Shown: positions 48,001 to 57,000, numbered from the stretch's first letter. The stretch is 64,000 bases of DNA from Candidatus Omnitrophota bacterium (GCA_030693145.1 JAUYBI010000041.1:10228-74227), one strand, 5' to 3'. The notes: generated by a model from the letters alone, not told the origin. Program-made: numbers and translations.

Positions 48001-51000
48001 TATACCACAAAAAGGTCAATGATAATAATTATGAAAGCAATCAGGTAAGGGATAACGTTATCCATATAAATTTAAATTTATTTCCTCCCTTTTATGACCC
48101 AGAGGAAAATAATAAGAGCCAGTATACCCGCCAAAATATAGAAGGTCAAAAGATTCATTATTCTGCTTTTGAGATAACGTTCCTAAATTCCCGATTTGGC
48201 GCTGCGGACACGGGAAAGAAATTGATAGATTTAGGCATGGACCGGAAGGTTAATATTCAAATGCCCCAATTTTTCAATCGGCATCTTTTGGCTTACATCG
48301 AGAATTTCAATTCCGAAGAGTTTTCCGTTTTTGTCAATATCTATGAGTATTCCATCGCGCAGTTTACGGGTTTCTTTAGCCTTGCCGCTCTGGAATTGAA
48401 TATACAAAGCATCCGCCTCTTGATCAAATCTTATTTCCATAATCTATCCCCTCTCTTTAAGCCAGTAAGTAGTAATAATAACTATTTCTCCATCAAGGTT
48501 TTTATAAACAACCTCAAGCTTTTTAGTTCCGAAATCTTTCTTAGCGATATGATCTCCTCCAAAACTAGAATGTATTTTGTCAGGATGAGCGATAGTGTTT
48601 TCGATTTGTTTCTTAGAAAGTTACCTTTGATTTATCCGAAGATTAGCATGTTTGGTATAGATGAATTTCACAATAAAAACCGTATCATGCCTGCGATGAT
48701 AAGTCAAGATGGATTTGCCGCCAGCGCGCAAGGCCTTGACGGCGGCGCGTCAGTTAAATCGGAAGAAATAAAACCGTTTCAAATTATTTCTATGATAGTC
48801 AGAGACGGCAACACTGATGGCAAAAAAGAAAATCAGCCAGAAATAGATGTGTCTTTTGAGATTGCTAAAAAATTATTAGAATCGTTGGAAGTAGAAAAAG
48901 ACGGTTACATTTACGAGATAAGAGTTTGTAAGTTTGATTTCGCAGTCCCAGAAATAATGAGAAAAATATCTAGTTATGTTTCATCTTCAGATTTCAGTGA
49001 AACTATTTCTTATATATTCAACGTAAGAAACGATGTTTCAGGAGTAGAATTATTAGAATATATATTAGAAAATAGGGAGATTGCTGTTTTTGATGATACT
49101 CTGATAGAAATTGGGCAAAGAAAGGGTGTGTTTCATCAAGAGGCTAAAAATGAAATAATGTCTGTTTTAGACAGGTTGAAGCAGGGAATTGTTTCAGAAT
49201 GTGCAATTGTGCCTCATTCGGAGCAAACTATAAAGGATAAAGCAGAAAAGAAGATTCTTGAAGTGTTAGCTGAAATATCCAGAGGAAGGGGCGCTTTGTA
49301 TTTCTGGCAAGAAACTTTCTATAAAATTATTGAAGAATTTGGTTCCGCTGCTATTGATTTTATCTTAAAGAAAATTAGTGATGCTGAAAATAATGACTTA
49401 AGGTATTTTGCTAATTGTTGCCTGACCACTGGGATATTGGGGCAGAACAATGAAGAGAAAAGAAGAGAATGTTATAGCGAAGTATTTGAGTTTTATAGAA
49501 ACAGAATAAATAACACAATTCCTTTAGATGAATTATTCCATATTCTGAGATGGGAAACACGTAGGCTGAGCAGTGTAGTTGTTCCTGCCAGTTTATTTAA
49601 CAGTATAGAAGATATTAAATATCTAATTAAAGCCGGACAAATGTCTCAATTCTATGGCCCCGGTTATTATATCCCTAGCGAAGATGTTTTTGAAATTATT
49701 ATAGATTTTTATCCTTCGCCATCTAATTGGAACACAACACAGCGATTTTATTATATATTTACGCCCGAAATACCCTCTGTAGATACGCCTGCACCTTACT
49801 TCCAAGTAAAAAAGTTAAAATTTTGCGAATATGGATTGTATGAAAAAGAATTAGCTTGCGAAAGCCTGTCTATGGAAGATATGGATTCGTTGCGAAAGAA
49901 ATTTAATGATAAAGATGGCCTGGTTATAATTACTAAAGGTGTTAGAGGCGCTATTACGACGGTTGTGCCTACGCTAGGCTTGCATATGCATTCTCATAAT
50001 GATGGCAGGCGTGGCCCATCTCTTGAAGATTATTTAGATTATGAAAGATTTAATTTTGATAAGGATGGGGGAGAATTAACTGGTGAAAAGCAAGAGAAGG
50101 AAAATATTTCTAATTTAATTGTGACAGTGGATACGGAAAGAGACGGCGGTGAGTCAGCCATTATTATTGATATTGGCGCAGGATATGGCGGCGTAGCGAA
50201 GTATTTAGCAGGGAAATTCCCAGCCTCTCGGAGAATAGCTTTGGAACCGGAAGTTGACGAAACCGCGTGGCTTAAGAAGTATATAACGAGGGACGTTTCC
50301 CAAGGGGACACCCTTGACCGCTCAGCGCGCCTTGACGGCGGAGATTTGAATAAGGGAATTTTACTTGAGAAGTTTAATAAATTCTTCTACGGAGAGTCCA
50401 GCACCTTTGAGAATAGAATAGAGTGTTCCAGGTTTAATGGTTTTGGAGCCGTGAACTGGAACTATACAGCGTCTATTCAGGTCGGTTTGATGCCGCATAA
50501 TAACATGGGAGCCGCTTTGGCGTTTAATAAAAAATCCGTGCTTTTCAAGGGCACGGATAACCTCTTTGCCAGAGACATGTGGCAATTTGGTCATACAGAA
50601 ACCTCTATATCTCTTAATTCGACCTCTACGTCAGATTCCGGAATTGGCAATTTATCATCTTTCAATGACCATAGATACAAATTAACTGCCTCTTTAATAT
50701 TAGCCAATGCCTCTTCTGTGGTTTCTCCTTGGGAAGCGCACCCGGGAAGCGCCGGAACATGGACAGAATATCCACCCTCGACCTCACTTTCAATAATTAC
50801 CTTAAGGTGCCTCAACATATTTATACCTCCTACTTATAAAAATACAATACATTTATCCCCAAGTCAAGGTAAAACTTCAATTCCTCTTGGCAGGCAGGCT
50901 AGTTTTGGCCGTTCAGCGCGCCTTGACGGCGGCGCCAAAGTTAAAAACCAGCGCTCCAGAATACTTGTTGAGCTGGAAATTGCTAAGGAAAGATTTGAAA

Positions 51001-54000: not shown

Positions 54001-57000
54001 CCGAAGTTTATGCCCAGATATCCAAAGTCAAGGTTGTTAGGCAAACCGGCAGTGAGTCATACCGGCTGGTGGAGCAAGGGTTTTTAAGCATATTCCGTGG
54101 CAGGGCCGGGATTATCGACTGTTCATTTGATGTGGGTGATAAAGGGGATGCCTACACTAGGGCAATACATGAAGATACGAAGTATTTTTTCGTATACAAA
54201 GGCAAGGAGTTAAAAGGGTATATCGGCCTTATGTTTGGCAAAACTCCGGATGCAGAGAAGATATTAGCCATAGATACAATCAACTCTCCTTTTTTAGACG
54301 GGAAAAAGCTTTCAGGCAATCTTTTTAGATTATTGAATGATTTAGCTAAGGAGTCAGGTTGTATCGGTATTGCGCTGCCTGGAGATATGGCTCTTTCTTT
54401 TAATTTTGACAATAAAAAGACAATTTCTGAAATGGATTCCTATAAGAAAGCAAGATCCATATCAGTAGTGCCATTACATCAAGAAAGCTGGGGGTATTTT
54501 ACTGAGATGTTTGGTCGGGATAAATATAACAGCATAGAAGAAGGTGAATTCAGGTGGTTATTAGAAATTGGATCAACTGATCGCTCAGCGCGCCTTGACG
54601 GTGGGGAAATATTTCAGGTTGTTGTTGGCACGCCAAAACTAACCGGACCATTTAAAGATAAAGTCGAGCAGATTGAGGAGTTTTTGAAGAAAAATCCCCA
54701 TGCGGATTTATTAGTTACTAGTGAATTTTCCTTTATTGATCACAGCTCAGGATCAATTTATGCTAATTTCCTTACGCTTAAGCAAGCAGAAGAGGGGCAT
54801 CATACGATTATCGCTGGCGCTATAAGCCTTATCGAAGCAATTCAAGAGATAAAAAAGATAGCTTACTTGTATAAAACTAATATTATTTTAGGAACAATTC
54901 TAGAGAAATTGGAGGATAAAAAAGTTTATTTTAATTCCGCCCTTGTTATTGATAATTTAGGGAATATTACGCATGTGGCAAGAAAACATCGCGATCTCTG
55001 TGGGAGGGATTTTCCTGAGTTAGTTCTTCCTACGGCAAGGCCGATCATTCTTTACAGTCGTGATAGGCGCAAATTCTCAGTTTTTATTGCTATTTGTTGT
55101 GACGCGGATAATGAAGAAATTTATGCAGTGAATAAGGATAAAGAAGCGGATGTATTTGTTGTTACTGCTTTCGGAGGAGATTTGCCGTATAGTTATATGA
55201 GCCAATGGGCATTGAAAGGTGAAATATCCTATATACCGCCTGAAGAGCTTCAATGCTATAGCGAAAATGCGGATTTTTTAACAAAAAAACTAGGTAAAGC
55301 TGAACGTGACTTTAATAAATTTTGGTGGAGAATTAAGTATTTGAAAGAATATAACATTCGCATAACAAGTGGGTTGCTTTTGGGTGTTGATGGGGAAAAT
55401 TATCAGGCAGGGGATAGTTTTCAGGCAGGTTTAATTCCGCTTTCTAATAAAAATATAGAGGTGAAAGATTTTAAAATTAATAATTATGGGTTTAGCGGTA
55501 AAATAAACATAAATGTTCATCAAGACGGCGGGAATGAACAATCTCCGGAGAACAACCCTATGGAGCGTATTTTAGGCGGTTTAGTTAAGGAAGCGGTAAT
55601 GAAAGTAACCTTCCCGGATAACCTGCAGGAGAAATTAAATAAGCTGAATGATGACGAAGGCATTAGCGTTACTCAAGAGGATATTATGCAGGCGATAGCG
55701 CAGCAGCTCGTAGCCAAAATGGTTTTAAAAGTTGAGCCTATACTTAAGGCGGGGATTGAAGATGTAAGCGGCATTAACAGGGCAGGCATTGCTGTTATCG
55801 GATTAACATTAAAGATTAACGGCGGAAAGCGGCAGATTTATATCTTGCGCACTGCTTCTGAATTGTCAAAGGTTGAGGCGCCTAAAGATGCGGGTTGGTT
55901 ATTGGATATTGTAGATTTTATACAGAAGAATGGTTTAGAAAATGCAAGTTTTATCGTGTTATCAAAAGATATGAGAAAGGAATTGATTAAAACAAATAAT
56001 ATGCATAATTGGTTCTTGTATACCTTTTCCAGGGGCCATGCCGGCAATAAGATGTTTCCTGAGATACTTAGATATATTGCCAGGGCTAAAACAAAGCAGG
56101 ATGCCGAACAAGCGGTGCGGAATATAGAAAACAATATTGGCCCTATTTTGAGGATAGCGTGTGAAAACAAAGCCGCATTAAGACAATTATTATTCGAAGA
56201 GGCATCGCGATTGGGCAAAGAGGCAACGGAAAACCCGGGGCCTATTTATAACGCTTACGAATTCATTCAAGAAAGCCTGATAAAAATGTCGATGCCAAAA
56301 GGATATAAAGATATAGAGGATTACTTTAATAGAGTTAAAGAGGTCAAGGATTTGTTTATGGGGTTAGGATTGTTTAGAGGTATCTTAGGGGACGGTTCTT
56401 GCACACTTGACTCTATGTCTGGCAAGGAGCTAGATGGTGGTTGTGAAAATAAGCTTGATGTAAATTTACTGATTAATTATGCCGCCGAGCTTATGGAAGA
56501 GAAAGAAGAAAATCCTCAAATACCTTTATTAAGTGAGGTTAAAAGGCAGTTAAGCCTGCGTAAGTCAAGGTTATTAAAGGCAGAGGAGTGGGTGCAAGAA
56601 AATGTTAAGCTTCGGAATGTAGGCGCGCGTGATATAGACATATATGAAGCTAGGTATGAAATAATGGAGTTGATTTTGAGTCTACCTGCTGAAATAGAAG
56701 TAGAAAGGTTTAAATTTAATTTTGCCATGGATACAAATGGCTGGCCGGGGTTACATATTGATAGGTTTCACAGTAATTCTTGCGGCTTTTATTGCGGCTG
56801 GGCGAATACATCAGAAAAGATAAGTTCCGCTATAAAAGATCAGATAATCAATGATTTAACTTCTTTTGGATTATCTTGGAAGGAATGGGAAGCTTGGGTA
56901 AAGAAAATAGAAGAGGTTTTTACTGTTTCTAACGATGTTCCTTTGAACAAAACGCAACCGTCACGTTTTGAAGGGCGTCTCAATATTGAACGAATTATTT

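Follow-up and report, generated by a model that had tools for sequence, protein, structure and literature searches.

An Asp-Gly-Gly boundary motif and antisense toxin-antitoxin genes in a giant multi-enzyme reading frame of the Omnitrophota type

Omnitrophota commonly carry giant open reading frames (ORFs), 20,000 to 147,000 codons long (bioRxiv 10.64898/2026.06.07.730766; bioRxiv 10.1101/2023.11.21.568195). Giant genes of this phylum were treated by West-Roberts et al. 2023 (bioRxiv 10.1101/2023.11.21.568195), and giants of the 'multi-enzyme metabolic cluster' type form class 1 of Nielsen & Lui 2026 (bioRxiv 10.64898/2026.06.07.730766). Protease domains C39 and S8 were recorded in the former preprint, and C39 domains recur in the giant proteins of both. 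The two preprints left undecided whether the products persist as one chain or are cut; the 2023 one stated that cleavage points are unknown and that module-wise analysis is hence blocked. The present study deals with one such ORF, which fills a 64,000-nt stretch of DNA from Candidatus Omnitrophota bacterium (GCA_030693145.1 JAUYBI010000041.1:10228-74227; this whole stretch is called the window), and in particular with the tripeptide Asp-Gly-Gly (DGG) that separates its modules and with toxin-antitoxin genes embedded in it on the opposite strand. A term-level check of both preprints turned up no boundary motif, cleavage point or embedded toxin-antitoxin genes, and found polyproteins, antisense genes and double-glycine sites unmentioned. 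At that level, the locus belongs to a known kind, the Omnitrophota giant multi-enzyme ORF, with a boundary motif and embedded antisense genes as unreported traits.

The giant frame was open from position 3 to 64000 on the plus strand (21,332 codons, zero stops) and ran past both ends of the window, while none of the other frames held an open stretch of at least 300 codons. Like the Omnitrophota multi-enzyme giants, it exceeds 10,000 codons in one ORF and contains many Pfam families (PGM/PMM, hexokinase, methyltransferases, radical SAM and HEAT among them), and its nearest homologues are Omnitrophota multi-enzyme proteins; for three modules the best named homologues were proteins from Omnitrophota metagenome-assembled genomes. 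Judged from these matches, it is a multi-enzyme giant ORF of the Omnitrophota type, and the host phylum is probably Omnitrophota. With few transmembrane helices in its 21-kaa stretch (only ~10 candidates in a hydropathy scan of the window, both ORF termini lying outside it), it may differ in this respect from the published giants.

The DGG motif between modules

DGG occurred 53 times in the giant frame against ~5.8 expected, a 9.2-fold excess that made it the most over-represented tripeptide (the next one reached 3.9-fold). The corresponding DNA word GAYGGNGG gave 57 matches against 7.7 expected, 56 on the plus strand and one on the minus strand, and all 30 copies of GACGGCGG were on the plus strand and in frame. 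Across the 53 junctions, no position beyond the three DGG codons was informative at either the DNA or the protein level, and only 8 nt were held in common. None of the 53 DGGs fell inside a Pfam envelope, with envelopes covering 25% of the ORF (binomial P = 2.5e-7), against 24 of 72 other GG and 21 of 71 DG[^G] controls. Pairs of DGGs enclosed the modules for PGM (residues 6721 and 7269), phosphoglucose isomerase (PGI; 8036 and 8636), hexokinase (11483 and 11934), histidine phosphatase (12622 and 12869) and amidohydrolase (13552 and 13992). In these bracketed enzyme modules, only 7-80 residues separated the DGG from the first profile position. The density of the motif peaked between residues 12,000 and 18,000.

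The same limits were recovered from a protein outside the giant ORF. The HEAT-containing module at 52470-54596 shared 64% identity with the central part of a stand-alone protein of 1,480 aa (P0001), and the homology ended within ~20 residues of a DGG at both sides of the module. DGG is thus solidly established as an inter-module boundary motif. Variants that might represent decayed junctions (NGG, EGG, DGA, DSG and the like) were considered and rejected: several occurred inside conserved domains, such as the PGM 'WEANGGF' stretch, and no consistent boundary context was seen. Likewise, GGAGG/GGCGG was discarded as an internal Shine-Dalgarno sequence, as inspection of the 53 contexts revealed no start codon at a consistent downstream distance.

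The conserved unit appeared to be the peptide. Single-base variants of GACGGCGG that were in frame numbered 13 for the synonymous kind, over 4 variant types, and 11 for the non-synonymous kind, over 20 types; per type, synonymous changes were therefore ~6 times commoner. A contig related to the window (L001, a 952-nt ENA record 96.7% identical to it and found by exact look-up of DUF5615) displayed the same tendency, the GAC of the 51165 junction being replaced by the synonymous GAT. Exact look-ups of HicA, DUF2283 and DUF433 returned no records. More distant relatives carried the motif as well. In P0126/L056 (44% G+C), four DGGs surrounded isochorismatase, NTP-transferase and PGM modules. A second relative, L057 (GCA_035343315.1, 51% G+C), held 14 DGGs against 2.4 expected, around HEAT, methyltransferase, CofD and PGM modules, and all of its GAYGGNGG words (15/15) were on the coding strand. 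The PGM modules of the window and of L057 ORF3 were 46% identical, and their BLAST alignment started and stopped exactly on DGGs. Overall, PGM-flanking DGGs were positionally conserved at 46-51% identity (P0133, P0126 and L057), in the midst of linker residues that were unconserved between the window and these relatives. With synonymous variants in excess and positions kept at such identities, these comparisons show DGG to be conserved as a peptide, also across related genomes.

The modules that are tiled along the giant frame matched ~25 Pfam families in the Pfam scan, many of them full-length and none dominating:

20163-21815, plus strand: complete PGM/PMM I-IV module, bracketed by two DGGs (20163 and 21807) whose positions are kept in a relative
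giant frame, Pfam set 1: B12-binding with radical SAM, DegT aminotransferase, APS kinase, PHP and CofD
giant frame, Pfam set 2: PGM/PMM domains I-IV, PGI, shikimate dehydrogenase, 6PGDH and 6PGL
giant frame, Pfam set 3: methyltransferases, uridine kinase, ARMT1-like and hexokinase (Hexokinase_1 and Hexokinase_2)
giant frame, Pfam set 4: histidine phosphatase (His_Phos_1), amidohydrolase, HPS, SIS, PEMT, HEAT and CN_hydrolase

PGI was matched over several stretches and is present in at least two copies. The hexokinase module (34458-35800, plus strand, full length) was 37-41% identical to vertebrate hexokinase-2; the top of its match list, after one Omnitrophota fragment, was almost entirely vertebrate, so that a bacterial giant ORF here includes a hexokinase of eukaryote-like character.

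Several observations concern the relatives themselves. The L057 contig (DAOQYV010000032.1, 1-20405) displayed equivalent content as consecutive same-strand ORFs of 1,421+, 1,502, 2,807, 515 and 356+ aa that lie ~35-200 nt apart, and four of the five contain DGG; one junction of the contig, GRARMDGG, is close to GRSARLDGG of the window. P0001, recorded in ENA, is a stand-alone, signal-peptide-bearing protein encoded among housekeeping genes, and at the two DGG boundary positions of the window it displayed the Ser-rich 'VSSSAQ' and 'TTGG' stretches. A related tandem-hexokinase fragment (P0005) was free of DGG, and its linkers contained Ser-rich stretches of the SSSA/SSAA type instead. Judged from these two sets of linkers, the boundary motif may differ from DGG in other lineages.

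Antisense inserts and extended junctions

Between 44 and 52 kb, five inserts read from the minus strand were found in the giant frame, all of them (5/5) between consecutive DGGs:

44294-44804, minus strand: DUF5647 gene and DUF7718-like fragment (Pfam 7.8e-22 and 1.9e-4), between DGGs at 44211 and 44817
45633-45925, minus strand: older insert with a HicB-like gene (HicB_lk 3.5e-8) and a decayed HicA 3' end, between DGGs at 45537 and 45987
48231-48440, minus strand: DUF2283 gene (Pfam 1.1e-17; resampling probability 0.0058), between DGGs at 47952 and 48738
50361-50818, minus strand: intact operon of HicB (50591-50818) and HicA (50361-50594) (Pfam 5.7e-22 for HicA and 1.5e-11 for HicB; resampling probabilities 0.0034 and 0.10 for HicA and HicB), between DGGs at 50334 and 50925
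51191-51782, minus strand: intact DUF433 gene (51558-51782) and DUF5615 PIN-like gene (51191-51568) (Pfam 4.5e-22 and 6.2e-23; resampling probabilities 0.022 and 0.030), between DGGs at 51165 and 51903

The HicBA and DUF433/DUF5615 pairs were complete, with ribosome-binding sites and, according to a promoter scan, predicted sigma-70-like promoters directly upstream (the promoter-like site of HicBA lies at 50867-50839). In the older insert, the segment 45633-45681 was 76% identical to the 3' end of the intact HicA (50361-50409). The giant frame remained free of stops across all antisense genes. Each antisense protein was re-encoded with the codon usage of the ORF itself, and the trials that left the opposite frame open were counted: they amounted to 0.34%, 10%, 3.0%, 2.2% and 0.58% for the HicA, HicB, DUF5615, DUF433 and DUF2283 genes, respectively, with a product of ~1e-9. 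The three codon-aligned antisense genes contained zero TTA, CTA and TCA codons. In the DUF433/DUF5615 region, five of the six differences between the window and L001 were synonymous for the toxin-antitoxin genes, while four of the six were non-synonymous in the giant frame. The toxin-antitoxin genes are accordingly under purifying selection, the sequence of the opposite peptide is unconstrained, and nothing but its open frame is kept. These results show antisense toxin-antitoxin genes residing in modules bounded by DGG, with the coding of both strands constrained. With five antisense genes, four of which make up two complete operons, the case of dual-strand coding constraint is unusually clean, and it shows how strong the selection for an uninterrupted giant frame is.

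Other antisense ORFs occurred in the window. Two pairs at 9414-10432 (153 and 171 aa) and 32954-33985 (165 and 171 aa), both on the minus strand, had no Pfam match; these four long ORFs probably arise from the way codons are used in the giant frame. A module of 80 aa that lies between the HicBA insert and the DUF433/DUF5615 insert was compared with L001 over 51040-51170. Six of the last seven differences were synonymous in the giant frame, which hints that this short peptide may itself be under selection.

An earlier note on this DNA had drawn attention to a GC-rich junction of ~27 nt, said to recur five times around the cassette region. Four copies could be confirmed. The 20-mer TCAGCGCGCCTTGACGGCGG was found four times on the plus strand of the window with at most two mismatches (exact at 50322-50341 and 50913-50932, one mismatch at 54585-54604, two at 51891-51910) and matched nowhere in 100 dinucleotide-preserving shuffles. 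A repeat search stretched the family to 47 nt (50295-50341, 50886-50932, 51864-51910 and 54558-54604), the first and third copies being 83% identical over that length. Start-to-start spacings were 591, 978 and 2694 nt. The fifth copy, at 48720-48746, had been called divergent; it matches only over its 3' 13-16 nt, having in common with the others GCCTTGACGGCGGCGC alone, plus ~10 nt further downstream with the 50920 copy, and its apparent CAGCGCGC match is one base out of step with the codons. It is therefore listed here as partial:

50295-50342, plus strand: extended copy A, closing a truncated methyltransferase fragment, before the HicBA insert
50886-50933, plus strand: extended copy B, after the HicBA insert, with a 20-nt core identical to that of copy A
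51864-51911, plus strand: extended copy C, after the DUF433/DUF5615 insert
54579-54605, plus strand: extended copy D (DRSARLDGG), closing the HEAT-containing module, before the CN_hydrolase module
48733-48758, plus strand: partial copy (GLDGGASVK), after the DUF2283 insert, 88% identical to 50920-50945
52456-52469, plus strand: partial copy (SLDGG, GCCTTGACGGCGGC), at the N-terminal boundary of the HEAT module

The peptide that had been read from these copies, (D/G)RS(A/T)R(L/F)DGG, proved right, in the frame that is open across the whole window. Their base composition was less exceptional than proposed: they rank 3, 4, 7, 10 and 15 among the GC-richest 27-mers, the top two being other words. 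The extended copies bound precisely the units that contain the two intact operons and the HEAT module; the older insert with decayed HicA, at 45537-45987, is flanked by plain DGG junctions. The suggestion that the extended copies are a younger or less decayed version of the general junction was supported, since GAYGGNGG alone is common to all 53 junctions and since the extended copies occur only at 50.3-54.6 kb, around the intact, apparently recent toxin-antitoxin inserts, older inserts having a bare DGG. The extended junction of 20-47 nt is thus a local, recent family of the DGG boundary mark, limited to the young block of 50.1-54.6 kb, and the copies themselves suggest young linkers that would have been copied along with inserted or duplicated modules. 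That the 27-nt extension as such is the functional site, as had been envisaged, was not supported, the positions outside DGG being devoid of information over the 53 junctions.

The block 50142-54597, bounded by extended junctions, displayed 42-53% G+C against 38.7% for the window, which is compatible with recent acquisition from a relative of higher G+C. Further local families of extended junctions were recorded at 43145-43233 and 45473-45561 (...GxRYxGEDGG(S/R)xQKL), at 45987-46021 and 47178-47212 (DGGR(K/Q)EKAQ), and at 12525 and 15759. The RSARLDGG family is accordingly only one of several recently copied linkers.

Possible roles of the junctions

Weighing these data, we lean, with moderate confidence, towards DGG as a polyprotein linker and probable protease site, with the extended word as a recently copied linker. 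The giant product would be a polyprotein cut at DGG. The cut could follow either Asp or GG; the latter is known from LXGG and double-glycine sites, and RLDGG fits LXGG. The enzymes would thereby be set free, and the nonsense peptides that are read opposite the toxin-antitoxin inserts would be disposed of. Recombination within a linker or beside it would insert or duplicate a module along with that linker, and the resulting direct repeats of 20-47 nt would later decay everywhere except at the positions encoding DGG. Among the three functions proposed in the earlier note (recombination, RNA processing and protease recognition), the last fits best, given conservation at the peptide level. Cleavage at DGG, taken by itself, is of moderate probability. 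If it occurs, the motif offers concrete candidate cut points for at least one lineage of giant ORFs and allows their computational splitting for structure prediction.

Candidate proteases are encoded in the same ORF:

12627-13340, plus strand: HExGH module, DGG-bounded, with paralogues at 14934-15758 and 38616-39587

The three paralogues share an invariant HExGH and a Glu ~20 residues downstream, and a minigluzincin-like metallopeptidase fold was predicted for them by fold comparison. They accordingly display HExxH and a downstream Glu on a predicted zincin fold, as expected of minigluzincins or M48-M56-type enzymes. Sequence profiles (Pfam and PDB) assigned no family, fold comparison alone being informative, and a profile search among 1.84 billion representatives retrieved only 11 relatives, mostly large Omnitrophota proteins. 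Since the family is also present in proteins without DGG enrichment, we regard the modules as candidate processing enzymes and nothing more. ORF1 of L057 opens with an archaemetzincin signature (HELGHTLGLSHC...C.M...C..C), which immediately precedes the first DGG of that ORF.

Several points weigh against a cleaved polyprotein. Cleavage is inferred, and Pfam found neither C39 (PF03412) nor any other clan CA peptidase in the 21,332 residues of the window. Positions P4 to P8 were unconserved over the 53 sites, an unusual situation where a double-glycine leader is to be recognised. No structural variant was seen to break at a junction, the sole related contig (L001) differing by divergence only. 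The GAC GGC codon pair was used at 30 of the 53 sites against ~14 expected from the controls DG[^G] (48% GAC) and [^D]GG (54% GGC), and a nucleotide-level contribution is therefore possible, by common descent, gene conversion or a DNA site; the first two, acting between junction copies, would explain the excess. Finally, DGG was found 28 times against 50 expected among 48 other Omnitrophota multi-enzyme proteins, where only P0126 and P0133 stood out; the absence of enrichment in the remaining 46 of the 48 indicates a lineage-restricted motif.

The best surviving alternative, though in our view an unlikely one, places the function in the DNA: GACGGCGG, extended to 20-47 nt in active copies, would be the core of the attachment or crossover site of an in-frame, integron-like cassette system, and DGG would merely be encoded by it. 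Its appeal lies in the extended direct repeats, which bracket cassette-sized units of 591, 978 and 2694 nt and are long enough for homologous exchange, and in the content of two such units, each of them a toxin-antitoxin operon complete in itself and provided with a predicted promoter. Such operons are typical cargo of chromosomal integrons. The excess of GAC GGC codons over context controls, the exact placement of all five antisense inserts between DGGs and the higher G+C of the 50142-54597 block compared with the whole window likewise count in its favour. Yet third codon positions vary freely while Asp-Gly-Gly is kept, and the position of DGG around PGM persists in lineages only 46-51% identical. 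Neither an inverted repeat nor an attC-like structure was found, and no integrase, transposase or reverse transcriptase domain was detected in the plus frame and the antisense ORFs tested. L001, the only related contig, contained no breakpoint variant; its 5' end, which was considered as a different neighbour, turned out to be homologous to the same small module, though diverged from it (39% aa identity), and so no structural variant is involved.

DGG might also serve both ends, as crossover sites that capture modules (backward toxin-antitoxin operons included) and as protease sites that excise the captured pieces, but such double use strikes us as doubtful. Were it true, an insertion without a stop in the giant frame would never poison the downstream modules, and toxin-antitoxin inserts would stabilise the locus.

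A purely structural linker, with DGG as a turn or hinge in an uncut protein and the extended copies reflecting paralogy after module duplication, is improbable to a similar degree. DGG does lie strictly between domains, as such a linker would, and the published view of many giants as membrane-anchored single polypeptides still stands (bioRxiv 10.64898/2026.06.07.730766). Against it, flexible linkers usually keep their composition and not their exact sequence, but here exactly three residues are invariant in unconserved surroundings, across genomes too. In addition, a working protein in one piece would have to retain the nonsense peptides that are read opposite the toxin-antitoxin genes.

At the RNA level, a GC-rich hairpin acting as a processing, stability or pausing signal in a very long transcript is very improbable. 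The stem of 4-7 bp around TTGAC (GCGCGCC/GGCG(G)CGC), which the earlier note had put forward, can indeed be drawn in three of the five copies. However, their folding energies are no different from those of shuffles (MFE z of -1.26 to +0.58 in 65-nt windows, both strands), no structure is common to them, and the stem, which requires Ala as the residue following DGG, is missing at 50334 and 54597. The 53 junctions have only 8 nt in common, and the window contained no Rfam family; with no excess folding and no such match, RNA processing is not supported. A tRNA scan of the window was also negative.

A generic dispersed repeat (REP- or MITE-like, or a skewed oligomer of the Chi/KOPS kind) caught in the ORF by chance is hardly credible: the word is short, GC-rich and completely strand-biased, but it is neither palindromic nor structured, all of its copies share one reading frame inside the ORF, 23 other in-frame variants still encode DGG, and in the two large collections scanned the 20-mer in degenerate form gave only single matches (TCARCGCGCYTTGACGGYGG: 26 in 185,579 species genomes and 28 in JGI metagenomes, 241 million records). 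These matches, in unrelated sequences of 49-73% G+C (39% here) that contain no giant ORF and are not enriched in the core, are due to chance. A palindromic, mostly intergenic element scattered genome-wide on both strands, as REP or MITE sequences are, was thus encountered neither in the window nor in these collections.

Comparison with known systems

The proposed polyprotein, cut at DGG, invites comparison with viral polyproteins, in which papain-like proteases cleave behind LXGG or GG, and with ubiquitin-type tails, which end in ...LRGG. As in the viral LXGG polyproteins, many units are joined in one chain with a short motif ending in Gly-Gly, and the R-L-D-G-G of the extended junction fits LXGG. 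Unlike in those, the window yielded no papain-like protease, Leu or Phe occupies P4 at only 14 of the 53 DGG sites, and the Asp that is invariant here at P3 does not belong to LXGG. With C39 double-glycine sites, the window shares Gly-Gly at the presumed P2-P1 positions of all 53 DGGs. The hydrophobic pattern of C39 leaders at -4, -7 and -12 is absent, position -4 being a mixture of Lys, Leu, Arg and Phe, and, in contrast to C39 systems, PF03412 was not matched within the 21,332 residues. Membership in the LXGG or double-glycine systems is thus not established, neither a clan CA peptidase nor a leader pattern having been found in the window.

Chromosomal integrons resemble the locus in that short direct repeats delimit cassette-sized units and that toxin-antitoxin operons are among the cargo. 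They differ from it in several respects. The copies in the window are direct repeats only, without the inverted repeats of attC (R''-L''...L'-R') and without folding beyond that of shuffles; neither IntI nor a recombinase domain was seen in the window; and its cassettes form part of a translated ORF whose frame they keep, with codons defining the conserved part of the repeat.

Rickettsia palindromic elements are repeats that are inserted in frame into coding genes. Like these, the DGG junctions consist of a repeated DNA word that is translated through with the frame unbroken. Unlike them, the word in the window is non-palindromic, measures 8-47 nt, always sits at module boundaries and encodes a peptide that is conserved across genomes.

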